Virus record (IMG/VR): IMGVR_UViG_3300012078_000128
Coordinates: 1 to 64,000 of that record
Reading direction: 5' to 3' (one strand)
Source of the DNA: a virus
DNA: 64,000 nucleotides
The position numbers were made by a program, and so were the translations under genes. The notes under the pieces were generated by a model, which was not told where the DNA came from, ran no database searches, and worked only from the letters and a program-made list of their open reading frames with translations. Below, piece by piece: positions 979 to 37,807 of this stretch (positions are counted from its first letter, which is position 1; every line of letters begins with the position of its first letter).

Positions 979-1006
979 ATGTATTATTGTTTATATTTTA
1001 AGAGGA

Positions 1007-1285
1007 TTATTTCCCGTTAACTTTATCTTTAATCTTCTGAGAAGGTTTAAACTTAACTGCTAAACTTGCTGCAATATCAAGTTCTTCACCAGTCTGTGGA
1101 TTGCGGCCTTTACGTGCTGAACGTTCTGTTACAGTAAACTTACCGATCTCACCAAGAGGAATGGATCTGCCTTCAACCAGAATGTCCTCAAATACTTTGA
1201 ATACGCTATCCAGAGTCGCGCGAGCATCTTTCTGTGTTACTTCCAATTTTTCTGCTACTGCTTTGATAAATTCTTGTTTTTTCAT
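1007..1285 (-). CDS. HU/IHF-family histone-like DNA-binding protein (SPbeta YonN-like position)
   Basis: 92 aa. MKKQEFIKAVAEK...GKFTVTERSARKGRNPQTGEEL...KFKPSQKIK is the classic HU fold signature. SD GGGAGAAA lies upstream of the ATG. Confidence 0.9.
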   Translation of the reverse strand: MKKQEFIKAVAEKLEVTQKDARATLDSVFKVFEDILVEGRSIPLGEIGKFTVTERSARKGRNPQTGEELDIAASLAVKFKPSQKIKDKVNGK

Positions 1286-1471
1286 AATTAATTTCTCCCT
1301 TGTTTTTCAATATATTTTTGTTTCCACATTCACAGCAAGTGGGACTGTCTTATATGTAGATTTTGTACATCACATGCATAAATTATTTATTATTTTATAG
1401 ATGTATTCTCTCTATATTGTAGACTTTAGAAACGTTGATGTATCAAGGCTTTTAATACTTTTTCGCAACTT

Positions 1472-4141
1472 TCAGCTTAAAATTTCACCTTTTTTGAAGA
1501 TTTCTAACAAACTTTTAGGATGCGTTTCATTTAAAACTGACAAAACTCTGAATAGCAATCCATGTTCTATCGCAATTAGATGCTTCACAAGCCTAAACAT
1601 TGTATCTTCTTTTATTTTCAAACTCTTTATATAATTGAGGTGCTCTCTGAAAGTGGAGTCAATTAATCTGTCTCTTTCTTTCTTATTGGAGTATTTTTTT
1701 GCATATAAACTCTGTGTTTCTCTATCTAATAGACTTATTCTTTTCATAATATTGTCAAATTGTTTCTCATTAGCTCTTTGTCGGGGTTTCTCTAGTAACA
1801 GGCTATCTATTAAAATAGAACTTTCTCTGGTACTATGAATATTTTCTTCAAGGTTTTTAATTAAATAATCCATAGGACAGTCACACATCTTAATGTTTCT
1901 TTCAATAGTTTTACTTTGACTCACATATCTCCAAAACAATGGTTTTTTCTTTCTTTCTTTTATAGACGGGATACTTTCAACATTTTTAATCTCTTTTGTG
2001 ATATCTATTTCATAAAATTTCTTTGCCATATCAATAGCAATTCCACTGAGAATTGTCATAACATCTACTTTTTTTAGTAGATTTTCAACTTTATGTTCAT
2101 CAACACACAAATTATTTTTCAAATCCCAGTAATAGGACATACATAACTGTCCTAAGTTAACGACTTTCCCTATGTCTGTTTGACTATTAGATAGTTGGTT
2201 GTCAATATCATACATATCTTTTGTAGTAAGTTTGTATTTCTTCTTCTGTCCTTCTATATGGTTAATGCATACTTTGTAATTACCAAAGCATTCTTTTGCT
2301 AATGCTAGCAATTTGTCATTATCAAATAGAAGTACAGTATCTGAATCATAATCAGCCCCTGAAAGTATGTCTTGTAATGCAAAGTTAATTGCGTTTACGC
2401 ACACTATGTTAGGTGTTAAGTTGAAGTATTTCTCAATTTCTTTCACTTGTTTATTCTTCACTACCAACACATTAGAAGGGGAGGTGTTAGGATTTCTAAA
2501 GCCGACATACTCTTTGTCAAAATCGAACAAATTAGTATAAACTTCATTATTCTTAAGTGTGTGCTTATTTTCACTTATATCAAATTTACCGATAGCATGT
2601 TTTAGAAATTCTAAAGGATTCCCTAGCATTACACAGTAGTCACCATTCAGTTTGATTTTACCTTTTTTAGCGTGGCTTCTTTGTGAGTATATAAATTGCC
2701 TTCTTACTTTTTTAAAGTTATTTGTTCTAATAAAATCCTTATTGTGTTCATACAAATCTACATAGACCTTATTATTATTGATGATAGTCGCAGATTCTCT
2801 TAGTTTTTGAATGAAAAACAAATCATCATTTTTAAGTCTATCTATATATTCGTATTCGGTTTCTACTAATTTTTTAATATCTTTTTGTTTGATCGGTAGA
2901 CAGTTGACCATTTGGTAAGAGGTTTGCTGTAGCAATCTTTTATCTAAATCTCTGCCTATTTTAGACTCTTTCTCATTTTTACAAACACCAAACAAACTTC
3001 CATCTTCTTTTACTTTAGACCTCCAATAGTTCCACATATCACTATCATTTTTTGTTTTTAAAACGTGTGTAAATTTGAAGACTTTCACACTATTGGGAGT
3101 TGTGATGAGCTCGATATCTTTTGCGAATAACTTATTCCCGAATTTATCGGTTATTTGCCAATCATCATAGTTTATTTCTTTAGGACAATTATTCTTAAAA
3201 AACTCTTGAATGTTACAATTGAAAGCTGCTGACTTGAACATGTGATTCCTTAAAAGCTTCATTGAAGTACCGTCTTCAAAGTGCTTGGAGTCCAATAAAG
3301 ATTGCCCATCAAATAATGAGTTGCTGACAGTTGTTTTTTCTTTGAAGCTGTCCAAGAAACCATCTTTACCTTTTTTTACAACATTGCACACCTGTTCAAA
3401 TTCACTATCTACGTCCTCAATTAGTAAAATTTTATCTGGATTTAAGGTCATAGTAGATTCAATAGATGAACCAACAAGAGATTCATATGCGAGTAAACCA
3501 GCTAAATCAATATTCATTCCTTTTCTTATGGGTAAATTCAATCTTGACCACTTAATCATTTTGTTATATAGCTCTTTTTTGATAAACAAACATTGTCCCG
3601 TTCTACTTTTAGAAGATGACCGTTTATACGCAACGTACTCTGTAGCCTTTGTTTTACCTGTTTTTTCATTTGTTCGGGTAATTTTAAATCCCTCGGTATA
3701 TAAAATCTTTCTTAGATCAGAAGCACTGATTGAATTCCACGATTCATTATTTTCTTCTATGGTGACAAGAAAATCATTAAGTCTTCCTAATGATTCTGGA
3801 TTATTTTCATTATTTATTTTCTTTTTATAGACAATATTGCTTAATTCTTTTGCGGATTTCACTTTCTGTTTGAACTTCACATTAATAATATCGTCACTAA
3901 TATCTTTTTCTCTGTTTTTTAAGTACTTTACATTTAATCCTGAATTTCTAAGCTTAATTAATTCTAGACTGTGCGGTATCATTCCAACGTAGTCATAATT
4001 TATGTAGGAGTCTCGATGCATATGGTTGTAAATATCATTCGCTTCAAGGCTTAAAATATAAACTGGCTTCTCTCTGATCTCTTTTTTCACTAGGTTTATC
4101 CTTTCTCCTATTTCTTTTGATAAGCCTAAAGATATTATCAC
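1472..4141 (-). CDS. yonO: YonO-like single-subunit RNA polymerase (RdRP/two-barrel family)
   Basis: 889 aa ORF next to the HU gene, as yonN-yonO in SPbeta. Motif block GFRNPNTSPSNVLVV...ILSGADYDSDTVLLFDND resembles the R-x-P...SGGDxDGD catalytic block of QDE-1-type RdRPs/YonO; DYDSD is encoded at 2339-2353. The GTG at 4090 with SD GGAGAAAGG is a more likely start than 4141. Confidence 0.7.
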   Translation of the reverse strand: MIISLGLSKEIGERINLVKKEIREKPVYILSLEANDIYNHMHRDSYINYDYVGMIPHSLELIKLRNSGLNVKYLKNREKDISDDIINVKFKQKVKSAKELSNIVYKKKINNENNPESLGRLNDFLVTIEENNESWNSISASDLRKILYTEGFKITRTNEKTGKTKATEYVAYKRSSSKSRTGQCLFIKKELYNKMIKWSRLNLPIRKGMNIDLAGLLAYESLVGSSIESTMTLNPDKILLIEDVDSEFEQVCNVVKKGKDGFLDSFKEKTTVSNSLFDGQSLLDSKHFEDGTSMKLLRNHMFKSAAFNCNIQEFFKNNCPKEINYDDWQITDKFGNKLFAKDIELITTPNSVKVFKFTHVLKTKNDSDMWNYWRSKVKEDGSLFGVCKNEKESKIGRDLDKRLLQQTSYQMVNCLPIKQKDIKKLVETEYEYIDRLKNDDLFFIQKLRESATIINNNKVYVDLYEHNKDFIRTNNFKKVRRQFIYSQRSHAKKGKIKLNGDYCVMLGNPLEFLKHAIGKFDISENKHTLKNNEVYTNLFDFDKEYVGFRNPNTSPSNVLVVKNKQVKEIEKYFNLTPNIVCVNAINFALQDILSGADYDSDTVLLFDNDKLLALAKECFGNYKVCINHIEGQKKKYKLTTKDMYDIDNQLSNSQTDIGKVVNLGQLCMSYYWDLKNNLCVDEHKVENLLKKVDVMTILSGIAIDMAKKFYEIDITKEIKNVESIPSIKERKKKPLFWRYVSQSKTIERNIKMCDCPMDYLIKNLEENIHSTRESSILIDSLLLEKPRQRANEKQFDNIMKRISLLDRETQSLYAKKYSNKKERDRLIDSTFREHLNYIKSLKIKEDTMFRLVKHLIAIEHGLLFRVLSVLNETHPKSLLEIFKKGEILS

Positions 4142-4247
4142 AATCTGATTAAAGGTATTGCAGTTGAAATATGCAATTGTCTAATATATTCCTTGATATC
4201 TTTAGAAATCGTAAATCTACTTTAGCAATAAGTCTATTGGGTTTATC

Positions 4248-4427
4248 TCAATACCCACGTTTCATAGTATTTCTAGCTTCTTGTTTCGTTTCCTTATATG
4301 TATCCCACTCTTTATTAAAATAACCATGTGTCTGATAATGGATGTACAAGTCCATTTCTTCTTGTGTATTTACTTCATGTTCAATCCTATCCTCTAGATA
4401 CCATATAATCTGTTCGTTACTAACCAT
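4248..4427 (-). CDS. Small hypothetical protein (59 aa)
   Basis: Own translation MVSNEQIIWYLEDRIEHEV...KRGY. SD GAGGAG lies 9 nt upstream of the ATG. Below the ORF-track size cutoff. Confidence 0.45.
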   Translation of the reverse strand: MVSNEQIIWYLEDRIEHEVNTQEEMDLYIHYQTHGYFNKEWDTYKETKQEARNTMKRGY

Positions 4428-4601
4428 TTGTCCATTCTCCTCATCATCTCCCTATAACTGAATATCACATCTAATGCCATCTTAGTTACAGATTTTATAA
4501 TTATTCTCTTTTGTGTGTATTCTGTGCATGAGTGCACCTTACACCTTTATATTAGATTTTATAAGAGTATATGTAAAGTTGTTTTTATTAATTATTACCT
4601 A

Positions 4602-4630
4602 TTGACTTGTAGATTTAGCTTATATAGAAT
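4602..4630 (+). promoter_or_regulatory. Sigma-A-type promoter for the helicase gene
   Basis: TTGACT (4602-4607), 17-nt spacer, TAGAAT (4625-4630). Confidence 0.5.
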
Positions 4631-4675
4631 AATAACCAGTGTCAGACATTACCACAAACAAAAGGGGAATGCGAA

Positions 4676-6961
4676 TTGAAAAAAGACGAAGTAATCAAAG
4701 TTAACGCTAAGGTGAAGAAGAAATTGTATCCGAAAGGTAACGAACACAACAATTTTTTCATATATTCAATTTCACCTAATTCAAGCTCTCAAGCTATTGC
4801 TACGCTAAATGAAGAGTATAATAATTTCATTGTAAGTGGAAAGATGCAAGAACTAATTGAAGGAAATACATATGATATTGAAATTATTCCTAGCTGGTCT
4901 AAGAAACATGGAGACGGATATTCTGTTGTAAGTGTAACAAGTGAACGTCCTTCTTCCATAAAAGATCAACAAGAATACGTTCAAAGAGTAATTACAGATA
5001 AACAATACAAAGCTCTCATCAATAAATATCCTGAGCATCCATTGTTAGATATGTTTGAGAACGATGACATCGACTACTCAGATATTAAAGGTATTGGTAA
5101 AACAGCATACCAAAAAATAAAAGATAATTTATTTAATAATATGATAACTAATGATTTGGCGGCAAAGCTAAAAAACATGGGCGTTACTTTCACATCTGCG
5201 AAAGCATTGCTTAACCACTTTGGTAGCTCCGACTTAGTTATACAATTATCCAAAGATAATATTTATCGGTTCTGCGAAATAAAAGGGTTTGGATTTAAAA
5301 AGGTGGACGAGTACGCAATTTTAAGAGGGGATGACCCTATGAGTAAAGGGCGTATCCTAGCTGCTACAAAATATCTACTTGATCAAGATGAGCAAAAGGG
5401 ACACTCTTGGATGTTTAAACAAGAGTTACTTGGACAATTACATGAGTTACTCAAAATTGATGTATTAAAAATAGAAACAATTGTGAATAGCATTCAGAAT
5501 AAGGAATACAATTTATACGTTGATGATAAAAGGGTTGCTTCATATCCTAATTATAAATATGAATTAGCAATAAAAAAGAAGCTGATTCAAATGATTAACA
5601 CGCCATGTAAGACTAAAGGTATTGATTCTGATGAAGTAATTAAAACTTTAGAATTGAAGAACGGCTTCGAATATACTGATGAACAAAAGAATGCAATTCG
5701 ATTAGCTACTAATAACAACATACTGATATTAAATGGGCGAGCCGGTTCAGGAAAAACGTTTACAGTAAAAGGAATTCTTGAAGCTCTCAGAGACTATTCT
5801 TATCATTGCAGTGCATTATCAGGGAAAGCAGCCAAGGTCCTTTCATCTAACGGTCTAACAGCTTCCACTATTCATCGTATGCTTGGTATTAATAAAGAAA
5901 CTGGTGGATTTGCTCATAACGAAAAAATGCAACTACAGCATGATATTGTAATCTTAGACGAATCATCAATGGCTAATATCTATTTAATTTATTCAATTGT
6001 AATTGCACTCAAAGATGACGCTAAAATTATATTTGTAGGAGATAATGGTCAATTACCTTCAATTGGAGTGGGTTCAGTATTCGATGACTTGTTGTCTACT
6101 GGTGTATTACCTCAACAAGAACTCACCAAAATACACAGGCAAGCACAAAAGTCAGGTATATTGTCTGTTGCCAATAGAATACGTACAGGTAATCAAATCA
6201 ATAAACCTTATGAATTTGAGACACAAGTTTATGGAGAGCTTAAAGATATGGTTCTAATCCCTGTGCGAGATAAATCATACATACAGAGCGTGATTCTGTC
6301 TATCTGCGAAAAATACAAGCACAACGACCTATTTGAGTTTCAAGTGTTAACTACAATGAGAGAACGTGGAGATATATCAGTTAAAACACTGAATAATCTC
6401 CTACAACCAATATTTAACCCAAACACAAAAGAGGGGATTAAAAGTGGTTGGTACGAATATAAAGAAGGGGATAAGATCATTCAAAACGGGAACAACTATG
6501 AAGCTAAAATTGAAATTGACGAGTTTAATGAAATGTTGAATGACTCTTTTGAACAAGTAGAAGACGTGGAAGAAAAAGAATCTACAGTAGAAGTATTTAA
6601 CGGTACAATGGGAAAAATTATAAAGATTAACAAAGATAAAGAAAATCAAAACCTTAAAGTCTACATACAATTTGAAGATATTGATGAAGTTGTTGTCTAT
6701 GAGAGAACTGACTTGATGCAAATTGAATTAGCATATGCAATTACCACGCATAAAAGTCAGGGATCAACCTTGAAACACGTTCTATTTGCACTTGATTACG
6801 GCGCATATAAGTTACTTAGCAGAGAAATGGTATATACAGCAATCACAAGAGCGAGTAAAGGTTGCGTAGTAGTTGCGGAAAACAGGGCATTCCATCACGC
6901 TATAGAAAATACAACGGGTGATAACAGAAGAACGTTTTTGAAAGAGTTGTTAAATAGTTAA
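4676..6961 (+). CDS. RecD2-like SF1B DNA helicase
   Basis: 761 aa. Walker A LNGRAGSGKTF, Walker B VILDESSM, C-terminal AITTHKSQGST and TAITRA motifs of the RecD/TraA family. TTG start 8 nt after GGGG. Confidence 0.85.
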   Translation: MKKDEVIKVNAKVKKKLYPKGNEHNNFFIYSISPNSSSQAIATLNEEYNNFIVSGKMQELIEGNTYDIEIIPSWSKKHGDGYSVVSVTSERPSSIKDQQEYVQRVITDKQYKALINKYPEHPLLDMFENDDIDYSDIKGIGKTAYQKIKDNLFNNMITNDLAAKLKNMGVTFTSAKALLNHFGSSDLVIQLSKDNIYRFCEIKGFGFKKVDEYAILRGDDPMSKGRILAATKYLLDQDEQKGHSWMFKQELLGQLHELLKIDVLKIETIVNSIQNKEYNLYVDDKRVASYPNYKYELAIKKKLIQMINTPCKTKGIDSDEVIKTLELKNGFEYTDEQKNAIRLATNNNILILNGRAGSGKTFTVKGILEALRDYSYHCSALSGKAAKVLSSNGLTASTIHRMLGINKETGGFAHNEKMQLQHDIVILDESSMANIYLIYSIVIALKDDAKIIFVGDNGQLPSIGVGSVFDDLLSTGVLPQQELTKIHRQAQKSGILSVANRIRTGNQINKPYEFETQVYGELKDMVLIPVRDKSYIQSVILSICEKYKHNDLFEFQVLTTMRERGDISVKTLNNLLQPIFNPNTKEGIKSGWYEYKEGDKIIQNGNNYEAKIEIDEFNEMLNDSFEQVEDVEEKESTVEVFNGTMGKIIKINKDKENQNLKVYIQFEDIDEVVVYERTDLMQIELAYAITTHKSQGSTLKHVLFALDYGAYKLLSREMVYTAITRASKGCVVVAENRAFHHAIENTTGDNRRTFLKELLNS

Positions 6962-6989
6962 AAGATAATAAGTAATATATTTTAATTTA

Positions 6990-7027
6990 TTTACAGACAG
7001 GGGTTGAAGTTCTAATATAGAAGAGTA
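6990..7027 (+). promoter_or_regulatory. Promoter, class TTTACA-N17-TAATAT with a conserved downstream 20-mer
   Basis: TTTACA 6990-6995, TAATAT 7013-7018. The 20-mer AGTTCTAATATAGAAGAGTA (7008-7027) is identical to 26285-26304. Confidence 0.5.
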
Positions 7028-7260
7028 GGTTCAAAAACTTGTCAAAAACATACATAAATGAACCTACTTGCTTATTCTTCTGATTTAGCTAGTATCAAAA
7101 AGTATCAAATATCAGTAACTTTTGAACCTACCTAGTGTCAAAAGTTATCATTTTTTTATACTTTTTGAACTGGGGGTAGGTTCAAAAGTTATCACTTTTT
7201 TATACTTTTTGACACAGATATATTAGAGATACTATTATACTAGAGATACTATACTATTAT
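7026..7260. repeat. Cluster of dyad and tandem repeats (candidate operator or origin)
   Basis: GTAGGTTCAAAA and its complement occur at 7026, 7062, 7120 and 7177. Two tandem ~38-bp imperfect palindromes (G/T)TCAAAAGTTATCAyTTTTTTATACTTTTTGA lie at 7133-7170 and 7177-7215. AGTATCAAA x2 at 7091 and 7101. TAGAGATACTAT x2 at 7223-7252. Confidence 0.6.
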
Positions 7261-7318
7261 TAAAGATATTGGAATGGTCGCGCGGTAGCAGCTTACCCAA
7301 AAAGAAAGGAGAGAAGTG

Positions 7319-8143
7319 ATGAAAGGATTTCAGAATGACTGGAAAGGGCTATATATCAAAGGTTTTAAATCCTTTGCAGATCTAGTAGAAAAGACGAAAG
7401 TAAAAACAGTAAATAAAGAGGGAGTAAAAACAAAAAAGAAGGTTAATGTTCTTGCTCCATATATTGAATATAGAGAGTTCTATACATATTGCCTTCTTGT
7501 TTTAAATGAGAGACGCAATCAAACTATCTCAGTAAATGTTAGTTTACTATTAGAACAATCCCCTATCAAATTCAGCACAACAAAGAAAAAGAATCGAGAA
7601 TTGTTAGTGGATAGCTTAATGTGTCTAAAAAAAGAAAACATTATTAATACAGCTAATGATTATTCCAAAGAGTATTTGCTTGGTGATAACCTCTTAGAAC
7701 TAAGAGTAAATTATAAAAAACTTTCGGGCAATAATAATACAGAAGATGATTGGAAAGGCTATGAACGAATCCCTTTCGATGCCTTTTTCAAAGCAAAGAA
7801 AATGCAACATCTATATATTTACTATTTGGTTAAACGATATGATCTCGATGGATTCAAATGTTCCTATAGTTATTGGGCAACACTTCTTGATTCTTCTTTG
7901 AGCACGGCTAAAAGGTATTTAGCAGAAGCTGTTGATGAAAAAGTTATATTTGTAAATATCGGAAAATATGAGAATAAATCAAGAGTTAGGCAACAGATGA
8001 ATACATATAAAACTTATTGCTTTAAGGATAAAGAGAAGACAATTCAAACAAAGATTAAAGAGGTTAAAAATGGAATCGATAAAGCGACTATTTGTTCTGA
8101 TGTTAGAAAAGTAGAAAGTTTATATTGCAGTAATCCATTTTAA
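7319..8143 (+). CDS. Hypothetical wHTH-like protein (possible initiator or regulator for the upstream repeats)
   Basis: ORF track 7316..8143. The ATG at 7319 follows SD AAAGGAGAG. The C-terminal segment SLSTAKRYLAEAVDEKVIFV looks like an HTH recognition region. Function inferred from context only. Confidence 0.45.
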   Translation: MKGFQNDWKGLYIKGFKSFADLVEKTKVKTVNKEGVKTKKKVNVLAPYIEYREFYTYCLLVLNERRNQTISVNVSLLLEQSPIKFSTTKKKNRELLVDSLMCLKKENIINTANDYSKEYLLGDNLLELRVNYKKLSGNNNTEDDWKGYERIPFDAFFKAKKMQHLYIYYLVKRYDLDGFKCSYSYWATLLDSSLSTAKRYLAEAVDEKVIFVNIGKYENKSRVRQQMNTYKTYCFKDKEKTIQTKIKEVKNGIDKATICSDVRKVESLYCSNPF

Positions 8144-8315
8144 ACAACAAAATCAAAGGTTGTGAGTCTAATCAGTTGCCTACATATTGTAATTTAAAAA
8201 AGAATAATTATAATATGTTATTTTAAATTTAATTTAAGGCGTTTTAGCAATAACTAATACAATGACACCTGAAATTAATTTAAACGTCACTATCGCTCTC
8301 TAATTAGCTCACAGG

Positions 8316-8362
8316 GACATGCTATAGATTCCGAACTCGGGAAAACTTTGCATGTCTTTTTT
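8316..8362 (+). terminator. Rho-independent terminator
   Basis: GACATGC (8316-8322) pairs with GCATGTC (8350-8356), followed by TTTTTT. Confidence 0.5.
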
Positions 8363-8364
8363 AT

Positions 8365-8453
8365 TTTACATTGAATGTAAATTCAATGTACTTATAAAGT
8401 AACTTACGCATAGGCTTATTTTAGAACAACATCAAATTTACATTCAATGTACA
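8365..8453. promoter_or_regulatory. parC-like palindrome cluster upstream of the actin-like gene
   Basis: 13-bp palindromes TACATT-N-AATGTA at 8367-8379 and 8439-8451, plus a degenerate copy at 8378-8391. Confidence 0.55.
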
Positions 8454-8470
8454 TGAAAGGTGGAGTTAAT

Positions 8471-9319
8471 GTGGAGATATTGGGGATTGACGCAGGTAAT
8501 AGCAACATAAAAGTCGTTGGTAATAAAGGAGAATTAACATTCCCATCAGCTTTAGGTGAGCATAGAGAAAGAAAACTGGTGCAAAAGTTCAGCGAAAATG
8601 ACATTGAATACGAATTTAGAGGAACGAAAGGCTTTGCAGGCACGTTGGCTAAATATGAAAGTCAATTTTCGGTTTCTAAAATGGGGGCTACTAAGGCTCA
8701 CAAGGAGATGTTAATTAGAGTTTTATTAGGAATCACACGTTATTCAAATGGAAACAACTTTAAGATTATCGTAGGCCAACCAATTAGCTACCACATTGAA
8801 GAAGAAAAAAACAAAATGAAGTCAATTTTAGTTGGCTCTCATGAAATTGAAGTAAATGGACAACATAGATTGATAAATATTGAAGATGTAGAAGTTGCAG
8901 CAGAATCGGGATCAGCATTCTGGTCTAATCCAACTAATGGTCTGGTTCGGATACTGGATATAGGAAGTGGAACCGTTAATGTCGCTACACTTATTGAAGG
9001 ACGTTATATAGATAAAGACAGTTTTACAATAACTGATGGTTTAGAAACACTTGTTAGCAACGATTTAAACGCTTTTGCTCGTAAAATTGCAATAGATACG
9101 CTTAAACGATGGGATGAAAACGATTTGGTTTTTTTATGTGGTGGCGGGGCAGAAAAGATGGAGAAATATATAAGAGACCACTATTTTAATACGAAGGTAT
9201 TAAAACCACAACTACAGTACAAAGACAATGATGGGGTAATACAAGGAAAACAATTATCACCGATATATGGGAATGCAGTTGGTTACTTCAACATTGCAAA
9301 GAAACAATGGTCTCAATGA
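8471..9319 (+). CDS. ParM/AlfA-like actin-family partition ATPase (copy 1)
   Basis: Phosphate-1 GIDAGNSNIKV, phosphate-2 ILDIGSGTVNV, adenosine motif LCGGGAE. The GTG at 8471 follows SD AAAGGTGGAG; the ORF track starts at 8447. Confidence 0.8.
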   Translation: MEILGIDAGNSNIKVVGNKGELTFPSALGEHRERKLVQKFSENDIEYEFRGTKGFAGTLAKYESQFSVSKMGATKAHKEMLIRVLLGITRYSNGNNFKIIVGQPISYHIEEEKNKMKSILVGSHEIEVNGQHRLINIEDVEVAAESGSAFWSNPTNGLVRILDIGSGTVNVATLIEGRYIDKDSFTITDGLETLVSNDLNAFARKIAIDTLKRWDENDLVFLCGGGAEKMEKYIRDHYFNTKVLKPQLQYKDNDGVIQGKQLSPIYGNAVGYFNIAKKQWSQ

Positions 9320-9543
9320 GCAAATTTGTAAATAAGGGAGTAAGTTTTAATTTGTCGGATATTGACCAAAAGAAGATGTATGAACATGCTATGAAACGCA
9401 CCAATTTTTCTTCATATGTTAAGCGACTTATTCAACGAGATATGGAAGGTTATAGCTTGTCTAATACCAATGAGCATAAGCCTGTCCAAAGCAAATTAGA
9501 ACCACTCAATTTCAACTCAGATGATATGAAAAGGCTACTCTAG
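9316..9543 (+). CDS. Ribbon-helix-helix adaptor (ParR/AlfB-like)
   Basis: ATGA overlap with the actin gene stop. KGVSFNLSDIDQKKMYEHAMKRTNFSSYVKRLIQRD fits a CopG/Arc-type RHH. Confidence 0.6.
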   Translation: MSKFVNKGVSFNLSDIDQKKMYEHAMKRTNFSSYVKRLIQRDMEGYSLSNTNEHKPVQSKLEPLNFNSDDMKRLL

Positions 9544-10676: not shown

Positions 10677-11145
10677 ACACATTCCATTTAACACGATTCA
10701 TCTTAATGAAAAAAAGAAGAAAACTGAAACTTTTATGAAAGTGAATGTAGGGGAGGTGAAAAACAACAGATTTATAAAAGCAGGCGCGTTAGTATCAGGT
10801 TTAACTATGTCAATGTTACCCAAAGTTGCACATGGAGAAGCTATAGAGACAACAGAAAATGTACAACAAACAATAACTCCAGCAGAAGTATTAGAGTATG
10901 GATTAACAATAGGGAAAATGGGGGTTGGCATAGCAGTAGGAATGTCGATAGTAATGCTCACATTCACAGGAATATTAATGATGCTGAAACAGAAACAAAA
11001 AAGCAAAGAATGGACTTCAGACATTATAAAAGGACTTGTTCACTGTTTAGTTGCTATTCCAGTCGTATTCGCGATTTATTACATTTCAACAAGCCTTTTC
11101 GGAAGCATAGATTTCACAAATCCAACATTCTTAAATACACCCTAA
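10627..11145 (+). CDS. Membrane protein with long leader, signal-like segment and two TM helices (VirB2/TrbC-like topology only)
   Basis: The ATG at 10627 lies 7 nt after SD AAAGGGGGA. FIKAGALVSGLTMSMLPKVAHG-EA is signal-like, followed by two hydrophobic helices separated by KQKQKSKEW. Confidence 0.5.
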   Translation: MTIKLNISSRELDNKVKHIPFNTIHLNEKKKKTETFMKVNVGEVKNNRFIKAGALVSGLTMSMLPKVAHGEAIETTENVQQTITPAEVLEYGLTIGKMGVGIAVGMSIVMLTFTGILMMLKQKQKSKEWTSDIIKGLVHCLVAIPVVFAIYYISTSLFGSIDFTNPTFLNTP

Positions 11146-12260
11146 TCCCCTTCACAGCCATATCTTCATTTACCTTATCCTCTATAACTAATAACGCCTA
11201 TGCAGCATCAGAAAGAAAGTTTTTACAAAAGAATATTGATACTTATAAATCTGACAATAGCTTTATAAATGAGATGAAAAATATTTCAGTTAGCTTTAGA
11301 GAGATTGGAGACAAGTTAAATGGTCTAACAGAATGGTTCAAGCATTTACCAAAGACTATTGAGCAAGGAAGCATGGATCTGATATCTAGTATCTATTCTC
11401 TAGTTGGAAATTTAATACTTAAGACACCTTTGTGGATTTTCGACAATCAATGGTTCAACAATAATACTTATTTATTTAGCATGGTATCTGTAGGGATTGT
11501 TACAGTATTAACTACAATTGAAGGTATTAAGAGGATGCTAAATAAGAAACATGTAAATTTAAAAACAATAATGAAACGTTGGTTTTGGGTAGCTGGACTG
11601 AATACAATTATTCCATTTTTGTTCATTAATACTTTCAGATTATTAAATTGGTTATCAGACAAAATTATAAACTTGAATGGAAATATAATTAAGAACACTG
11701 CTCAGAATGCAACAGCACCTTTCGACTTATTTGTAATGGTTATATTTAGCTTAGTGTTAGTCGGAATTACAATTCCTACATTAATGACAAACAGCCGCAG
11801 ATTCTTCGATCTCATTACATTAGGTATCATAAGTCCGTTGGCGATGACAGCATACATTTTCGATCCATATAAACATTTGTTTACTCAATGGTGGTCAAGT
11901 GTGAAACACCTATCTATGGTTCAGGTTATATATGCTTTCTACTTAATGATTATAGGCTTATTAATTTATGGTATCCCTACACCTGATGACACAATGGGAG
12001 TAGTTTTTAAATTCCTTCTAGTTATTGGAGGCTTTATGAGGCTGATGAATCCTCCTCAGTTTATGAATAAACATCTAGACGGTAGTGGAAGTATTACTGA
12101 TGAATTTGGTAGAGCCAAAAAAACTAAAAAGAGTATCATTGGTAAATTTAGGGAGAGCGTGAAGGTTGTTAAAAATCCAATTAACGCTGTGAAATTCTTA
12201 TCTAAAGGAAAGCAACATAAAGTAGTAACAGGTAATACAAGGATGGACAGATATCATTAA
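11010..12260 (+). CDS. Polytopic membrane protein (VirB6/TrbL-like topology only); start unresolved
   Basis: Signal-peptide-like RKHRFHKSNILKYTLIPFTAISSFTLSSITNNAYA-AS, then at least 5 hydrophobic helices. The only canonical in-frame start (11010) has no SD and overlaps the upstream gene by 136 nt. Confidence 0.5.
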   Translation: MDFRHYKRTCSLFSCYSSRIRDLLHFNKPFRKHRFHKSNILKYTLIPFTAISSFTLSSITNNAYAASERKFLQKNIDTYKSDNSFINEMKNISVSFREIGDKLNGLTEWFKHLPKTIEQGSMDLISSIYSLVGNLILKTPLWIFDNQWFNNNTYLFSMVSVGIVTVLTTIEGIKRMLNKKHVNLKTIMKRWFWVAGLNTIIPFLFINTFRLLNWLSDKIINLNGNIIKNTAQNATAPFDLFVMVIFSLVLVGITIPTLMTNSRRFFDLITLGIISPLAMTAYIFDPYKHLFTQWWSSVKHLSMVQVIYAFYLMIIGLLIYGIPTPDDTMGVVFKFLLVIGGFMRLMNPPQFMNKHLDGSGSITDEFGRAKKTKKSIIGKFRESVKVVKNPINAVKFLSKGKQHKVVTGNTRMDRYH

Positions 12261-12272
12261 GGGGTGAAGAAT

Positions 12273-14450
12273 ATGCTTAACCTTACAATGGAGCACGAAG
12301 AAATAAGTATGGAAGAACGTATGTCAAAAGATTTTTTCGGCGTGCAATATGTGGTTACTAAAGATGGATTAAAAAGTTCAAATTATACCCCATCCCTTAT
12401 AGACAGGGGATGGTTAAGAATGGGATCAGAAGACAACGGATTCAAGTTTACTATGGCTGAAGCTAAATTAGTTAGACCGTATTTCATGCCAATTAGATGC
12501 GATGCTAAAGGATTCTTCATTGAGTACTTGGAAGAGTTGTCTAATGTGCTATATGAGGAAGATGAATACATTACATTTGCGTTCTCATTTCATAAAAAAA
12601 CAAAGTGGAGAGAACAAGCTATAGAGATGTATCAAAGCTATCTTAATGGTGTTGATTATCCGATGGGTAATAAGTATTTCAGACACCTACAGGAAAGTAT
12701 CTTAAATGTGAAGAACAACATACTTAGTAACACAAGTGAACGGGAGTACTCTCAAGATATTGAAGATAAGATTCTCGACAATGGATATAGTATGAATTTT
12801 ATCATCCAGATATATTCAGATAGATGTGATGAACTGATTGATTTGGTGCAATCTATATTTGATCAATATGCTTATTATAATGGGATTAAGATAGGAAATT
12901 GTCCAAAAAGAAACATCCACTACTTTGAGGATAAAAACCAAATCATGAGCAAACAAGAAATATTGTCTTTACTAAGTACTGATTCTGCAATTGCAAGTAC
13001 AGAAGTGAGTGAGAAGAAATCTTTGAGTATAGTTAGTAGTGGAAGCAAGCTTAACGTTGAAATATTGCCCGAAATTGAAGGGAACGTCCCAATTAAGATT
13101 GATGATACATTGGAATGTAAACTGGCTGAAGCGATGAAACGTGTAGGACTGATTAAACAAGCAAGATTATATAACAGTAGTATAAATAGTGGATCAAGAT
13201 TAGTTGTTGTTCAATGTGATGTACCTACTGGTAAGAATTATAGCGATGTAGAAAAGAAGAAGAAAGATATTAGAGTGGCTTTAGGAGTGAAATCATTAGG
13301 TATAGAACAAGGAGAAGCTGCCAACACAATTAAGTTTAGCATTCCACACAATGATCATAGAATTATCTCACTGAGAGAAATGGTGCTAATGGAAGAATGG
13401 GAGAAATTTAGAGAGAAAAATGCATTGAGTTTTGTTTGTGGCATGGATGAGTTAGATAGTCCCGTATTTCTAAGTCTAAGAAAGCTAGCGCATTTACTTG
13501 TAGCAGGAACAACTGGAAGTGGGAAAAGTGTATTCCTAAATCAGATGATATATACGCTGTTAAGTAACCATAGACCAGATGAATTACAGATGTTCTTGAT
13601 TGATCCTAAGAAGATTGAGTTTATGGATTATGAAGGTTTCCCACAAGTACAGAAGGTTGTAACTGACATGAATGAGGCAGGTAATATATGTACTTCGTTA
13701 GTTCTAGAGATGGAAGAAAGATACGATAAGATGAGTAAATTAAGTTGTAGAGAGATTGATGATTATAATACCAAGAGTAAAGATAAGATGCCTTATATTG
13801 TATTTGTAGTCGATGAATTTGCTGATTTAATGACTGTTGCGAGTAAAAGTATAGAAGAATCAATAATGAGACTGGGGCAGAAGGCAAGAGCCTGTGGTAT
13901 ACATTTAATTATTGCTACACAGAGACCAAGTGCTGATATATTAAGTGGAACAATTAAGGCTAATATACAAAATGCTATTAGCTTTAACTTGGGAAGCAAT
14001 AGAAATTATAGAACTGTATTTGATGAGAGTATTCCATTTGATTCACTTCTAGGCATGGGAGATGGTGTTGCGAGAATTGAAAGGTGGAAGAAAGATTTTC
14101 AACGTTTTCAAAGTCCTACTATTCATACTAATAATGATGTTGTATTGGATGCGATAGAAAAGCTAAAGGAATATTACAGTGGATTGGGTAGTGTTGAAAT
14201 GATTGATACACTAGATATAGTTGAAGAGGTTAGTTTAATTGATGAATTGAAGATGATTATTGCTGATACAGGAGAAACTAGAGTAGGCGAGTTAAGGAAG
14301 TTAATGGGGATTAAATCAGAGACAATCGGTGAGTTAATGAGTGAACTGACTAAAGAGGGATGGTTAATGAAGCATAAGAGTAGATCAAAAGGTTATGAGT
14401 TGATTATAAAACAAGATGAATTGGATAAGTGGAAAAATAAGCGTATATAA
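12273..14450 (+). CDS. FtsK/SpoIIIE-family DNA translocase-like ATPase, soluble, with C-terminal winged helix
   Basis: Walker A VAGTTGSGKSVF, Walker B VVDEFADL, ATQRPS motif, and a gamma-like wHTH (ETRVGELRKLMGIKSETIGELMSELTKEGWL). No N-terminal TM segments. The ATG at 12273 follows SD AAGGGG. Confidence 0.85.
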   Translation: MLNLTMEHEEISMEERMSKDFFGVQYVVTKDGLKSSNYTPSLIDRGWLRMGSEDNGFKFTMAEAKLVRPYFMPIRCDAKGFFIEYLEELSNVLYEEDEYITFAFSFHKKTKWREQAIEMYQSYLNGVDYPMGNKYFRHLQESILNVKNNILSNTSEREYSQDIEDKILDNGYSMNFIIQIYSDRCDELIDLVQSIFDQYAYYNGIKIGNCPKRNIHYFEDKNQIMSKQEILSLLSTDSAIASTEVSEKKSLSIVSSGSKLNVEILPEIEGNVPIKIDDTLECKLAEAMKRVGLIKQARLYNSSINSGSRLVVVQCDVPTGKNYSDVEKKKKDIRVALGVKSLGIEQGEAANTIKFSIPHNDHRIISLREMVLMEEWEKFREKNALSFVCGMDELDSPVFLSLRKLAHLLVAGTTGSGKSVFLNQMIYTLLSNHRPDELQMFLIDPKKIEFMDYEGFPQVQKVVTDMNEAGNICTSLVLEMEERYDKMSKLSCREIDDYNTKSKDKMPYIVFVVDEFADLMTVASKSIEESIMRLGQKARACGIHLIIATQRPSADILSGTIKANIQNAISFNLGSNRNYRTVFDESIPFDSLLGMGDGVARIERWKKDFQRFQSPTIHTNNDVVLDAIEKLKEYYSGLGSVEMIDTLDIVEEVSLIDELKMIIADTGETRVGELRKLMGIKSETIGELMSELTKEGWLMKHKSRSKGYELIIKQDELDKWKNKRI

Positions 14451-19174: not shown

Positions 19175-20257
19175 ATGCAAACCAATTTTGCTGATTTTAA
19201 ACAAGCCAAAGATAAGCCTAAAAGACGGATGAATGATGGCTTCAATACAGAAGTTTACAATCAAATTATGCGGTTTCTAAGAGATCACGAAGAAGAAAGT
19301 AAGAACACAGCTAAGAACTACGAGAGACATATACGCACTTTCTTTATCCAGACTAAAAATAAGAAAATAGAGCATCTAAAAAAAGAAGACTTATTATTTG
19401 AAACCGAAGAGTTCGAGGATTACAAATATTATATGTTACATGATTTAGGATTGAGCACATCAAGTGTTAGTGTAGCTTTAGCAGCAATAAAAGGTTGTTA
19501 TAAACATTTGCATAATAGAAAGTCCGCCAAAGACGATAAAAAAAGGTTGATTGAAGATATTTCTTTTTTAGATATTAAGCATACAAAAGTAATCAATAAA
19601 TCTTGGGATGGCTTAACATCACAAGAAGTAAAAAAGGTAGCTACTTATATGGGTACTAAAAACAGAACAGGTAAAATCAAACGTGCATTTTTATTATTTT
19701 CATTAGATACGTGTATGCGTGAGGATGAATGTTTAAATGTAACATGGGACGATTTTATTATTAAAAATAATGAAGTAATTGTCAAAACAATTGCAAAAGG
19801 AAAAAAAGACATGCAAAGAAGAATCAGCAGGACGGTTTATAATATCTTATTAGAAATAAAACAAGAAAACGCAAACAAAGTATTTAATATAAGTAGCTCA
19901 ACAGTACAAAGAATGCTACCTGAAATCAGAAAATATCTTAATATTGACCCTAAACAACGCAGAATAGTATTTCATTCAATCCGTAAAGCTGGTGCACAGC
20001 ATATATGGAAAAAGACTAGAGACATTAATCAAGTAAGACGTATGTTAGGTCATGAATCAATAGCTACTACAGAGCTGTATATTGATAAGAATGAAAACTA
20101 TGGAGTATTTGGTGCAGTCTCAGACGAGTTCGAAACAGACGATCAGTTATTCGAAAAGGTATCACACAGAGAATTGTTAAATGCAATTAGAGAGATGAAC
20201 AACGACACAAAATTATTCATAAATCTAAAACTAAAGGAAAGAATGAATCGAAAATAA
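19175..20257 (+). CDS. Tyrosine recombinase/integrase-family protein (SPbeta YopP-like position and size)
   Basis: C-terminal HSIRKAGAQHIW...MLGHESIATTELY carries the H-x-x-R ... H ... Y catalytic residues. Confidence 0.8.
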   Translation: MQTNFADFKQAKDKPKRRMNDGFNTEVYNQIMRFLRDHEEESKNTAKNYERHIRTFFIQTKNKKIEHLKKEDLLFETEEFEDYKYYMLHDLGLSTSSVSVALAAIKGCYKHLHNRKSAKDDKKRLIEDISFLDIKHTKVINKSWDGLTSQEVKKVATYMGTKNRTGKIKRAFLLFSLDTCMREDECLNVTWDDFIIKNNEVIVKTIAKGKKDMQRRISRTVYNILLEIKQENANKVFNISSSTVQRMLPEIRKYLNIDPKQRRIVFHSIRKAGAQHIWKKTRDINQVRRMLGHESIATTELYIDKNENYGVFGAVSDEFETDDQLFEKVSHRELLNAIREMNNDTKLFINLKLKERMNRK

Positions 20258-20263
20258 AATAAT

Positions 20264-20292
20264 TTGCACATAGGCTATATAACTTGTATAGT
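20264..20292 (+). promoter_or_regulatory. Candidate promoter
   Basis: TTGCAC (20264-20269), 17-nt spacer, TATAGT (20287-20292). Confidence 0.4.
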
Positions 20293-20335
20293 AATAATAT
20301 ATTATGATTATGATTGTGAAGGGTGAGAGCAAACT

Positions 20336-21673
20336 ATGAAGCCTAATATGACTAGAGAAATGTTAGAACAAGAATTAATTCAGCCTACTCTAAAATTAAA
20401 ACGTAGGAGAAAAGTAACAGATTCCATAAAAAAACATTTGTTTTCTGAACATGCTCTATTAGAGGGAAACGTACAAAGTTTAATTGCTGACCCAAGAAAT
20501 GAATTACCAAAAGTAGATAATAGAATTTTATTTTTGTTCGCTGAACAAATTTATAAACAAACTCTTGAGGATAAAGTTAATCCAGATCACTATTACAATG
20601 AACATGAAGTGAAATTAGCACGTAAATACTCAGGAAATATTATAAAAAAAGATGAAGTGAGATTACCCTTAACTTTGAACAATTTTATTGAAGTTAACTT
20701 TAATGAATATGTAGGTAAAATCACAATTGAAGATTTAGCAAAACTTAGTTCATCATTGTTGAATTATAATTTTGATATTCAACGTGAAGCAGTAAAAGTT
20801 AAACGTGGTAATAATATTGAGTTAGAAGCTAAATTAGTACAAAAGAATGTAAGAGAGATTAAAAACAATCTTAAAGCAGGAACACAGAAAACTACACAAA
20901 TTGTTATTAATGCATCTGCAGGAACTTCCGACGATGGAGAAGAACTACTTTATAATCCAGAAACATTACAACTTACTATTAATGAAGGTACAATTCTTGA
21001 TATTGTGGATGGTTATCACCGAAGTAAGGCAGCAGAATTAGCACATAACGAAGATCCTTCTATTACTCGTGAATTTACTGTTCTTATGCTTAACTGTACA
21101 GATGATGAAGCTAAAAAATATCAAGGGCAGCTTGCAGAAGCAACACCTATTTCTAGAACACGCCAAAAACAACTATCAAGCAAACGTATGGCTGATGAAG
21201 TTGTTAGAAATATTATGGCACAATCCGATCTTAAGGGACATGTCTCAAGTGACGTGGTAAATCTAAGTAATGCTGAATATGTAACATATGAAATGTTAGC
21301 GCAAAATATTGAAAATTATTTTGATATTAAGTTAAATATGGATGTTCGTAAAGTGAGCGCATATCTTAAAGATTATTTTGATATGTTAGTTGGATCATAT
21401 CCAGACGCTTTCTTAAACAATCCTTCTGAAGTACGAAAAACATCTGTAATTAATGAGAATACAATGTTTGCAGGGTATGTAAAATTAGCTTCAAGAATGT
21501 ATAAGGATAGCATTGACGTAATGAAAGTTATTGATTACATGGAGAAAATTGATTTCAGTCGTCTTAATCCTTTGTGGAAAGAAATCGGGTACTTACAAGA
21601 AGACGGAAAGTTAGGAAACACTGATAGAGCAAAGAAACAGATTGTGGAATATTTTAATAATTTAGAACTATAA
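20336..21673 (+). CDS. ParB/Srx-fold protein with DGxHR motif (DndB/DGQHR-like; YopQ-like position)
   Basis: ILDIVDGYHRSKAAE matches the DGQHR-type ParB-like nuclease-fold signature. 445 aa. Confidence 0.55.
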   Translation: MKPNMTREMLEQELIQPTLKLKRRRKVTDSIKKHLFSEHALLEGNVQSLIADPRNELPKVDNRILFLFAEQIYKQTLEDKVNPDHYYNEHEVKLARKYSGNIIKKDEVRLPLTLNNFIEVNFNEYVGKITIEDLAKLSSSLLNYNFDIQREAVKVKRGNNIELEAKLVQKNVREIKNNLKAGTQKTTQIVINASAGTSDDGEELLYNPETLQLTINEGTILDIVDGYHRSKAAELAHNEDPSITREFTVLMLNCTDDEAKKYQGQLAEATPISRTRQKQLSSKRMADEVVRNIMAQSDLKGHVSSDVVNLSNAEYVTYEMLAQNIENYFDIKLNMDVRKVSAYLKDYFDMLVGSYPDAFLNNPSEVRKTSVINENTMFAGYVKLASRMYKDSIDVMKVIDYMEKIDFSRLNPLWKEIGYLQEDGKLGNTDRAKKQIVEYFNNLEL

Positions 21674-21716
21674 TAGTGTATAATATCACCAAATTAGAGA
21701 GAAGGGAATTCGAGAA

Positions 21717-22700
21717 ATGATGGCAACGGACACAATGTATTACAATCAAGATATAAAAGAAGCTTATATTGAAAACGAATTTGATAATGAAGATACAATA
21801 AAACTTCAAGAAACTCTTTTTAAGAAAACAAAGTCCACGGAAGAATTTTTCGGGAGAGATTTAGCTACTTTTACATTAGATGAAATTGCTATTGCCTTCA
21901 GAAACTTTAACCCTGCAACTATGAACAGCGCAAGTAATCTAAAAAGCAGAATCAAAAGTTATATTAGATGGGCAATAGAACACGGATATAGACAGAATAA
22001 TATGAATCCCTTAGATGGTGTAGTTGGTTGGGAAAGACAATTTGTAGATGAAGTTACAGAAAGACATTTATCATCAGAAAGAATAGCTAATATTCAAGAG
22101 GAATTACCTAATTTTCAAGATGTTGCCTTAATTCAATGTATTTTTGAAGGGGTTTCAGGAGTAGGCCTTTCAGAATTAATTAATATGAACTATTCTGACA
22201 TTAATTTTACGAAAAAAGAGATACACCTTAGAAATGATAAAGGTGAAGACAGAGTTGTCAAAGTCTCTAACGACTGTCTGAACTATTTAAATAGAGCTTA
22301 TAATGAAAGTAATTACGTTAATATTATCAGTGGATCAGAAACCTCATTGATTGAGTGTGGGGAACGCATTTTTAAAAATACTCGCTCTAAAAATACTCAA
22401 TACAAGGAAATATCTAAATTAACTTTACCTAAACGATTAGCTAGAATTAAAGATCTTTATGAATTAGATGAGTTTTCTACAAATTCTTTAACTGAATCAG
22501 GACAAATTAAAATGGCTGTTGATTTATACAAAGAAAATGGAAAACTAGATAAGGAAGAGTTCGAATTAATTTCAGATCAATTTAAAACTAGTAGAATAAA
22601 GTATGATGGATATGATTATGTAAACATTCATAAAATGCGTCATTATATTACTAGAGAGAACATTAAAGAGCTATATAACATAGACATAGAAACACTTTAG
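21717..22700 (+). CDS. Tyrosine-recombinase-like protein with degenerate active site (candidate MrpR/YopR-type repressor)
   Basis: Core-binding-like N-terminus (NLKSRIKSYIRWAIEHGY). The block FEGVSGVGLSELINMNYSDI aligns to the TG-L-R-x-S-E-L box, but the Arg is replaced. Size and position match SPbeta yopR. Confidence 0.5.
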   Translation: MMATDTMYYNQDIKEAYIENEFDNEDTIKLQETLFKKTKSTEEFFGRDLATFTLDEIAIAFRNFNPATMNSASNLKSRIKSYIRWAIEHGYRQNNMNPLDGVVGWERQFVDEVTERHLSSERIANIQEELPNFQDVALIQCIFEGVSGVGLSELINMNYSDINFTKKEIHLRNDKGEDRVVKVSNDCLNYLNRAYNESNYVNIISGSETSLIECGERIFKNTRSKNTQYKEISKLTLPKRLARIKDLYELDEFSTNSLTESGQIKMAVDLYKENGKLDKEEFELISDQFKTSRIKYDGYDYVNIHKMRHYITRENIKELYNIDIETL

Positions 22701-37310: not shown

Positions 37311-37383
37311 TAAAGTCTAAAAAGTTTTAATATTTGTGTATCAAAGTATTGATTTCATACACAACTTGATGTACAATAAGTAT

Positions 37384-37785: not shown

Positions 37786-37807
37786 TTACGTTAAGGAGGT
37801 GACAGAA

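Follow-up and report, generated by a model that had tools for sequence, protein, structure and literature searches.

Why would a single phage genome carry two actin-type segregation cassettes? The question is raised by a 64,000-nucleotide stretch of viral DNA (positions 1 to 64,000 of IMG/VR record IMGVR_UViG_3300012078_000128, referred to below as the window). Here two operons, each encoding an actin-fold ATPase and a small adaptor, lie in an SPbeta-like gene background: cassette 1 toward the low end on the forward strand, and cassette 2 toward the high end on the reverse strand. Each cassette alone is of a known kind; the combination is unusual. The reading favored here, at a probability of roughly 0.55, is that the window is part of a complete temperate SPbeta-like siphovirus genome of ~117–118 kb from a low-GC Bacillaceae host, carried as a low-copy plasmid prophage, with the work of the two cassettes divided between them.

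The first point to settle is whether both cassettes are complete loci, and whether they are really different. ATPase 1 is encoded in an open reading frame (ORF) spanning 8447–9319 (+), with a GTG start at 8471 backed by a strong ribosome-binding site (AAAGGTGGAG, 8456–8465) and by the gene calls of relatives. An initial annotation of the window, made from the DNA letters alone, had described a 283-amino acid (aa) actin-fold protein here; the fold stands, but counted from GTG 8471 the length is 282 aa (283 counts from 8468). The protein (8471–9319, +) matches Pfam ALP_N (6e-22) and the phrog_691 "partition protein" family (1.6e-47), and its AlphaFold2 model has a predicted local distance difference test score (pLDDT) of 94.5. 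Profile and Foldseek comparisons both place AlfA closest. Foldseek ranks the AlfA filament structures 6bqw and 6f95 first (E 1e-18, template modelling (TM) score 0.73–0.76, 23–24% identity) and also matches the model to ParM, and a profile of the family matches AlfA in the PDB over almost its full length (2.6e-14), followed by Clostridium botulinum ParMs. Because identity is only 23–24%, ATPase 1 is a distant relative of AlfA rather than its orthologue. The family is large: at E up to 1e-10 it has over 534 homologues, most of them 270–290 aa long. Residues D7, G9, E145, G165, T168, G224 and G225 are invariant in 64 homologues. Between the phosphate-2 motif (D163–N170) and the adenosine motif (G224, G225) there are 55 residues, versus 117 in ATPase 2 of the other cassette; this spacing is consistent with a much reduced, AlfA-like IIB subdomain.

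Adaptor 1 (75 aa, 9316–9543, +) is coupled to ATPase 1, its ATG overlapping the TGA of the upstream gene as ATGA. Across 37 homologues it has a conserved core, V(s/a)FNL-DPDQ--LY-HAMKRTNFS-Y(I/V)KRLIQRDMEG, which reads as strand, helix, helix and is followed by a variable linker and a hydrophobic C-terminal tail. The pattern fits a ribbon-helix-helix (RHH) adaptor with a putative motor-binding tail. Of the initial description of an ATGA-coupled RHH protein, the coupling is therefore exact and the fold label agrees with the pattern, but independent comparisons did not add to it: phmmer and profile searches of the PDB with adaptor 1, Pfam scans of the 37 members, and hhalign comparisons with the adaptor 2 family and with Arc and CopG sequences all failed to give a significant match. 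In two metagenomic relatives, L008 and L017, the ATPases are 69 and 65% identical to ATPase 1 and the adaptors 75 and 79% identical to adaptor 1.

The candidate centromere and operator of cassette 1 is a group of three 13-bp sites of the form TACATT-N-AATGTA (8367–8451), toward the 3′ end of the intergenic stretch upstream of ATPase 1 (8144–8470). Two are perfect palindromes, at 8367–8379 (TACATTGAATGTA) and 8439–8451 (TACATTCAATGTA), and the third, at 8378–8390, has one mismatch. These palindromes had been picked out initially, and they prove to be the sole matches in the window (~0.97 expected window-wide). There are 33 perfect 6-N-6 palindromes in the window, and theirs is the only pair within 100 bp to share a half-site; when the intergenic region was shuffled, such a pair arose in only 2 of 2000 cases. 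Both perfect copies are kept in L008 and L017, identical in position and sequence amid divergent flanks, and in L008 the distal site is nested in a perfect 31-bp palindrome. All three sites fall in the 85 bp preceding the ribosome-binding site, which the proximal palindrome abuts, and the palindromes bracket a promoter-like core read by eye as TTGAAT-16-TATAAA, the −35-like TTGAAT falling inside the distal palindrome, 16 nt ahead of TATAAA. This is the arrangement expected of a combined operator and centromere site, and cassette 1 thus shows the repeated sites next to or overlapping the operon promoter that are found in type II (ParMRC-like) loci. Adaptor 1 would be the protein expected to bind them. 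As a type II-like locus, cassette 1 is real and conserved.

On its upstream side cassette 1 is bounded by a terminator-like hairpin (GGGACATGC...GCATGTC and then a T-run; 8313–8365, +). Folding of the RNA from 8215–8366 gave z = −3.0, and the hairpin is kept in L008 with two base pairs preserved through changes on both sides (the 3′ arm of L017 is cut off in the alignment). The leader as a whole (8144–8365) has a promoter-like site at 8187–8214 ahead of the conserved hairpin, and ~130 nt of it are conserved in L008 and L017 despite different upstream genes; it may be a small RNA. Rfam found no family in this leader or anywhere else in the window, and the weak leader matches were chance ones, of microRNA-precursor models to inverted repeats. 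A conserved box in the leader (TTAATTTAAACGTCAC, 8275–8290) was considered as a dispersed repressor operator and rejected as single-copy.

Cassette 2, which had been reported as a minus-strand ATPase and adaptor with short repeats upstream, holds up in all three parts. ATPase 2 (364 aa, 60495–61589, −) matches Pfam ALP_N (1.6e-17) and Alp7A_like_C (2e-8), and its AlphaFold2 model (pLDDT 93.4) has pSK41 ParM, 3js6, as its top Foldseek match (E 8e-23, target-normalised TM 0.79, structural-alignment identity 21%). The family profile matches the same structure over residues 12–358 (4.9e-39), and Alp7A (5ec0) at only 3.9e-4. The closest relationship is thus not to Alp7A, despite the Alp7A_like_C domain, and the comparison with Alp7A/Alp7R offered initially gives way to one with pSK41 ParM/ParR, to which both the full-length relation of the ATPase and the ParR-like adaptor point. 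Adaptor 2 (93 aa, 60211–60492, −) starts 2 nt past the ATPase 2 stop. A profile of its family (56 representatives) matches 2q2k, the pSK41 ParR N-terminal domain bound to DNA, at 2e-4, CopG-family RHH proteins at 6e-3 and 0.03, and NikR weakly (E 1); adaptor 2 is therefore a ParR-type RHH protein, and it is the adaptor, of the two, for which there is profile evidence of this fold. Identities are 56–57% between ATPase 2 and genes on circular Bacillus phage-plasmids, and 47–55% between adaptor 2 and the adaptors of related loci.

The candidate centromere and operator of cassette 2 consists of two 19-nt direct repeats (ATTTTRTKGCTAATAATTA in gene sense; 61637–61688, −), at 61637–61655 and 61670–61688. 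They are alike at 17 of 19 positions, a match equalled in none of 500 shuffles, and are placed 33 bp apart, ~50–100 bp upstream of ATPase 2, with the proximal copy overlapping a −35-like TTGCTA. The repeats of L011 are different ones, and an iteron-like motif from L008 (TGTTCTACATT) does not form a repeat series ahead of cassette 2 in the window. Immediately 3′ of adaptor 2 is a 128-aa protein (59647–60033, −) with weak matches to Arc-like repressors over most of its length, possibly a tandem RHH protein judging from these matches; its homologue in a Bacillus wiedmannii phage-plasmid is located away from the par locus of that element.

Both cassettes are thus supported as complete type II loci, and their motors are far apart. 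The two ATPases share Pfam ALP_N and phrog_691, and the phosphate-1, phosphate-2 and adenosine motifs that the initial annotation had seen in both are invariant in each family. Beyond these motifs it had seen little resemblance, and this is borne out: the BLASTP alignment is confined to 62 residues around the phosphate-2 motif (26% identity), and cross-family hidden Markov model (HMM) scores are 23–28 bits versus more than 420 bits within each family. It is hardly probable that one of the cassettes is a decaying, functionless relic. Finished relatives do manage with a single cassette, but here every nucleotide-binding motif is kept in both ATPases, both models are confident (pLDDT 93–94), each adaptor gene is intact and closely linked to its own ATPase gene, and the operator sites of cassette 1 are conserved over three elements while the flanks diverge.

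What kind of element carries them? An SPbeta-like backbone had been proposed from the outset, and 19 ORFs in the window match SPbeta in the same, collinear order. They include homologues of YonN (HU, 46%), YopQ, YopR (the MrpR master repressor), YorF–YorL (33–65% identity; YorI 57%, YorL 53–65%), YorM, YorR, YorS, the ribonucleotide reductase, YosR and YotM (RecU-like, 45%). Beyond the window, the left flank has PhoH, members of the Pfam families YonJ and YonG, and genes of terminase and portal size; the right flank has tail-fibre genes, XkdX, a holin and an amidase. SPbeta serves as the model for large temperate Bacillus phages and is known to integrate as a prophage. Unlike the element studied here, SPbeta (SPBc2) has no RepA, no FtsK-like gene and no actin-like gene (neither ATPase family HMM gives a match in it at E up to 10). 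It integrates via SprA and SprB at att.

The SPbeta order is yotM, sprB, att, sprA (yokA), accessory genes, holin, endolysin and tail genes. In the window the YotM homologue (55319–55876) is followed by RepA, a set of iterons, a 443-aa protein, the Arc-like protein, adaptor 2, ATPase 2 and a divergent MerR-type gene, and past the latter by a 102-aa zinc-ribbon ORF and then amidase, holin and tail genes. RepA (55956–57188, +) belongs to a family of plasmid replication initiators (Pfam PF10134 RPA, 1.7e-9, 38.1 bits against a cut-off of 27) and has no homologue in SPbeta. Between it and the 443-aa ORF are seven direct iterons (ATGTTARGGTACAGTA; 57198–57612, +), a candidate plasmid-type origin. 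All seven matches to the motif fall in this region, versus 0.07 expected in the whole window; their spacing is mostly 56–58 bp, with one of 42 bp and one 130-bp gap spanning a hairpin terminator (~57367–57400), so placed that three iterons precede it and four follow. The 102-aa ORF (62804–63112, +), where SPbeta has sprA, contains only a Zn_ribbon_recom domain (precomputed Pfam PF13408). It is possibly the remnant of a lost large serine recombinase or integrase; tblastn against SPbeta YokA at 1e-5 gave no match. The 443-aa (57663–58994) and 275-aa (7316–8143) proteins were also considered as Rep candidates and set aside: neither matches any family or resembles the RepA proteins of relatives. 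The iteron/RepA replicon and the partition locus thus occupy the slot of the SPbeta sprB-att-sprA integration module.

The same module is found on finished circular records. A MerR-type protein, ParM and ParR, with Rep and a helicase nearby, are also encoded by NZ_CP032366 (B. wiedmannii, 137.6 kb), NZ_CP097785 (B. velezensis, 129.7 kb) and NZ_CP069392. These three also encode terminase, tape measure, tail fibre, holin, ribonucleotide reductase and a PHP polymerase; entered in the database as plasmids, they are in fact phage-plasmids. ATPase 2 homologues are concentrated on contigs of 123–148 kb from Bacillus, Peribacillus and Viridibacillus, and in Peribacillus frigoritolerans a RepA_N protein comes after the cassette 2-type locus. 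ATPase 2, adaptor 2 and the MerR-type protein are respectively 56, 53 and 45% identical to their counterparts in the B. wiedmannii element, versus 22–32% for the backbone, which suggests that the module is mobile between elements. NZ_CP069392 has ATPase 2 in two places, which could be taken for a dual cassette. This was ruled out: NZ_CP069392.1, filed as a 148-kb circular plasmid, has identical protein accessions at 0–18 and 130–148 kb, an untrimmed terminal duplication of ~18 kb, and its true size is ~130 kb.

The contig from which the window comes has been assembled at 117,007, 118,024 and 118,042 bp in three sources. Its two flanks have the same transcription direction, one running into the high end and the other entering from the low end, so that the late operon seems to run across the contig ends. 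In the 84 kb examined no host gene was seen. The apparent wrap of the late operon and the lack of host genes point to what is probably a complete circular or circularly permuted genome. No close relative turned up when 2.3 kb and 25 kb of the window were compared by megablast with phage and plasmid collections. Nor were there any matches when IMG/VR contigs were scanned with single ATPases as queries (the source contig itself went unmatched), or when metagenome contigs were scanned with a portal-like protein with the aim of reaching contig ends and assessing circularity.

On one molecule, then, there are the phage genes for YonG, YonJ, a terminase-like protein, tail fibre, holin, amidase and MrpR together with RepA, the iterons and two par cassettes. 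The extrachromosomal phage-plasmid suggested initially is strongly supported by RepA, the seven iterons, their place in the sprB-att-sprA slot, the synteny with phage-plasmids and the apparent wrap of the late operon; the support is good where the element and cassette 2 are concerned, and persistence as a plasmid is the most likely state. It is improbable that the element is a prophage that integrates in the conventional way, or a purely lytic population, in which both actin systems would do no more than position lytic replicating DNA and plasmid lysogeny would not occur. Such a role has a precedent in the AlpC/AlpA pair of CGP3, an integrated prophage (PMC4446434), most members of the cassette 1 family are in integrated elements, and 33 kb of the contig lie outside the stretch examined. 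Against this, RepA and seven iterons fill the SPbeta integration slot, the only piece of serine recombinase there is the 102-aa zinc-ribbon fragment, and cassette 2 homologues have the same neighbors on finished circular plasmid records. The MrpR/YopR-type master repressor, too, indicates that the phage is temperate. The repressor gene is part of a lysogeny-management cluster (19175–22700) of tyrosine-recombinase-like, DndB-like and MrpR-type genes, homologous to SPbeta yopP, yopQ and yopR.

If the element is a plasmid prophage with its own partition locus in the replicon, what is the other cassette for? The distributions of the two families differ. By tblastn, ATPase 1 has matches in 59 phage records (among them Flasso at 47.5%, D6E, Basilisk and Tsamsa) versus 31 plasmid records, and ATPase 2 in 70 plasmid records and none in the phage collection. 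A scan of the Bacillales with one genome per species found 27 loci of the ATPase 1 family, 24 of which have an adaptor 1-family gene directly 3′. At least four of the 27 are on complete chromosomes (Salipaludibacillus HK11 and three Sporosarcina strains). Three loci in integrated SPbeta-like prophages, L028 (on a 786-kb Metabacillus contig), L030 (on a 406-kb Bacillus contig) and L014 (the ATPase gene of which is also carried on a 1.28-Mb Lederbergia lenta contig), share the gene order of the window around cassette 1: YonG, YonJ, PhoH, HU, the ATPase-adaptor pair, a helix-turn-helix regulator, a multi-pass membrane protein and an FtsK-like protein. Cassette 1 occupies the yonP|yonR junction in an SPbeta-like sub-lineage, integrated members included. 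The initial annotation had treated loci of this kind as plasmid hallmarks, a label that does not suit cassette 1, with a family in 59 phage records, at least four complete chromosomes and integrated SPbeta-like prophages. Partition would be useless to an integrated prophage in lysogeny, which favors a role for cassette 1 once the DNA is episomal, and its distribution speaks for a function beyond plasmid partition. Its filaments may instead position replicating phage DNA, as had been offered initially as the alternative to plasmid maintenance.

From 11010 to 14450, 1.5–5 kb downstream of the cassette, are a 416-aa multi-pass membrane protein and a 728-aa FtsK/SpoIIIE-family ATPase, neither with an SPbeta homologue. 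The same block comes after cassette 1-type loci in L008, L017, L014, L028 and L030, and an FtsK-like gene also flanks such loci in L015/L024 and L027.

Pairs of actin-like cassettes recur in two other metagenomic elements. In L008 a cassette 1 homologue is followed 6 kb on by a homologue of the MerR-type protein (42%), a 308-aa actin-like ATPase with 23% identity to ATPase 2, and a 93-aa adaptor unrelated to adaptor 2. L011, which is also SPbeta-like (YonK, YonG, HU), has a cassette 2 homologue (69%) and a divergent Alp7A_like_C ATPase, the two flanking a RecD2-like helicase. L008 also has a RecD2-like helicase and an extra UvrD-like helicase, both with inteins (Intein_splicing and LAGLIDADG domains; 997–8806 of that element), with an AP2-like 251-aa gene between these and its cassette 1.

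The pair of cassettes in the window can be read in another way, which is rather unlikely: both could be ordinary, redundant plasmid par systems, brought together in a mosaic by recombination between phage-plasmids, the second adding stability, host range or exclusion through centromere incompatibility. Dual type I partition systems on one replicon are known (PMC13245405). The cassette 2 module, at 56/53/45% identity to the B. wiedmannii plasmid in a backbone of 22–32%, suggests just such an exchange, and the slot beside the MerR gene in L008 holds a different ATPase-adaptor pair (ATPase 23%, adaptor unrelated, MerR 42%). Against redundancy speak the conserved position of cassette 1 in integrated SPbeta-like prophages, where partition is needless during lysogeny, and the ATPase 1 family being rarer on plasmids (31) than in phages (59), the opposite of cassette 2.

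The favored reading of a plasmid prophage with divided cassette roles can be put as follows. A plasmid maintenance module, located between the YotM-like resolvase and the lysis genes, consists of RepA, the seven iterons, the pSK41-type ParM/ParR pair and the TubY-like MerR protein discussed below, and cassette 2, together with RepA and the iterons, would act as a dedicated partition system for plasmid lysogeny. In cassette 1, dimers of adaptor 1 would bind the TACATT-N-AATGTA palindromes flanking their own promoter, which would at once keep the operon repressed and assemble a centromere complex. The conserved C-terminal tail of the adaptor would couple this complex to ATP-dependent, AlfA-like filaments of ATPase 1, which would push or position copies of the element. 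Because it is at the same yonP|yonR junction in integrated relatives, cassette 1 was presumably inherited with the phage lineage, and it would act whenever the genome is episomal: after induction in the integrated relatives, and always here.

Several points weigh against this reading. The finished phage-plasmids examined have one cassette each and none has two; the B. wiedmannii phage-plasmid, for one, lacks both a second actin-like gene and a homologue of cassette 1. At none of the 27 Bacillales genome loci is there a second actin-like gene within 10 kb. The division of roles is drawn solely from distribution, family 1 being found in phages and chromosomes and family 2 on plasmids. The RHH fold of adaptor 1 is unconfirmed by any PDB, Pfam or hhalign comparison, and the candidate repeats of cassette 2 are two copies only. 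As to the plasmid state, the 33 kb outside the 84 kb examined could hold an integrase, and virion or replicating DNA in a metagenome would assemble the same as a plasmid prophage.

A broader and more tentative proposal, in which less confidence is placed, is that an SPbeta-like sub-lineage went from integrative to plasmid lysogeny by a module swap and kept an ancestral AlfA-like cassette that positions episomal or induced DNA, with the two actins dividing lysogenic from lytic work. The MerR-like protein would then be a membrane-tethering third component of partition, a type of component so far described only for tubulin-type (TubZRY) systems.

Among known systems, cassette 1 is most like the AlfA/AlfB-parN locus of B. 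subtilis plasmids pLS32 and pBS32, with a short ATPase, a small adaptor encoded 3′ of it, and repeats on the upstream side that overlap the promoter. It differs in that the repeats are 13-bp palindromes, where parN is made up of short tandem repeats, that its host is an SPbeta-like phage, and that its family is found mostly in phages and integrated elements. Cassette 2 resembles the ParM/ParR-parC system of Staphylococcus aureus pSK41 in its ATPase, the profile match of its adaptor and the direct repeats upstream of the ATPase, but has two repeats only, has a divergent TubY-like MerR gene attached, and lies in a phage genome beside RepA and iterons.

Cassettes of a ParM-like ATPase and an RHH protein are established in the Bacillus plasmid prophages IEBH and vB_BtS_B83, the pBtic235-like group, and large plasmid phages of Clostridioides difficile (PMC8026635, PMC6669507, PMC11526630, PMC5786514); the pBtic235-like group also encodes a DNA polymerase III alpha subunit and a very long tape measure protein (PMC8026635, PMC6669507, PMC5786514). 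These B. cereus-group and C. difficile elements, too, are temperate tailed phages; they are maintained as circular plasmids, and each encodes a ParM-like ATPase along with a small RHH adaptor. They are described with one cassette each, unlike the two heterologous cassettes, explicit RepA/iteron replicon and clear SPbeta backbone found here, and pBtic235 ParM is only 29% identical to ATPase 1. For cassette 1-type loci in integrated SPbeta-like prophages, the best functional analogy is AlpC/AlpA-alpS of the integrated Corynebacterium glutamicum prophage CGP3, in which an actin-like ATPase and its adaptor position and replicate phage DNA after induction (PMC4446434, PMC5539076). The analogy concerns function, and the host phylum and phage type differ. 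Two partition systems on one replicon are a known arrangement for type I (PMC13245405). Within the literature searched, three features appear to be new: two heterologous actin-type cassettes on an SPbeta-like backbone, the clean swap of an integration module for a RepA/iteron replicon, and the possible TubY-like accessory protein.

The last of these is the MerR-type gene divergent from cassette 2 (62147–62788, +). Its product has a helix-turn-helix domain (residues 16–75; MerR_1, 5.6e-7), then a long coiled coil, and ends in an amphipathic, basic tail, KRGFWSKLFGK. The gene adjoins actin-like cassettes in L008, NZ_CP032366, NZ_CP097785 and NZ_CP069392 as well, and in the five homologues beside such cassettes the tail is (K/R)GF(F/W)xKLFGK, with the G, F, L, F and final K invariant. 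A protein of similar build, ending in GRFLGRFL, is found at the Peribacillus locus (L009). For a profile of the five sequences the best match in all of the PDB is the TubY C-terminal domain 7C7Y (E 0.006 over 71 residues), a weak match and one in a coiled coil; the likeness to TubY is a lead, not a finding. TubY is the third component of tubulin-type TubZRC systems, with an amphipathic tail that binds membranes and DNA (PMC7762940), and the relevant literature found on it concerns type III systems only. The protein encoded here is like the TubY of the TubZ/TubR/TubY systems of pBc10987, pBtoxis and C. botulinum phage c-st in its MerR-type architecture and its position beside a motor-adaptor operon (PMC7762940). 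It differs in that the motor is actin-like, not tubulin-like, and that the tail is a MinD-like GFxxKLFGK where that of TubY is a lysine cluster.

On the favored reading, the element and its relatives would be an SPbeta backbone converted to plasmid lysogeny by a clean module swap. With two unrelated actin machines on one replicon, they offer a natural system in which to ask whether phage actins serve inheritance, lytic replication or both, and how two filament systems coexist without cross-talk. A TubY-like protein beside actin-type cassettes would, if confirmed, be an accessory factor shared by type II and type III partition. The circular Bacillus "plasmids" of 130–148 kb with this module are due for re-annotation as phage-plasmids.

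One further feature of the backbone is the YorL-like DNA polymerase (36052–42123), a single protein in SPbeta and in Bacillus phage-plasmids, which is split here into a PHP-domain ORF (36052–36906) and a core ORF (38980–42123). Between the two halves is an insertion of the IS200/IS605 type, with a 149-aa ORF (37336–37785) and a TnpB/OrfB gene (37691–38926).

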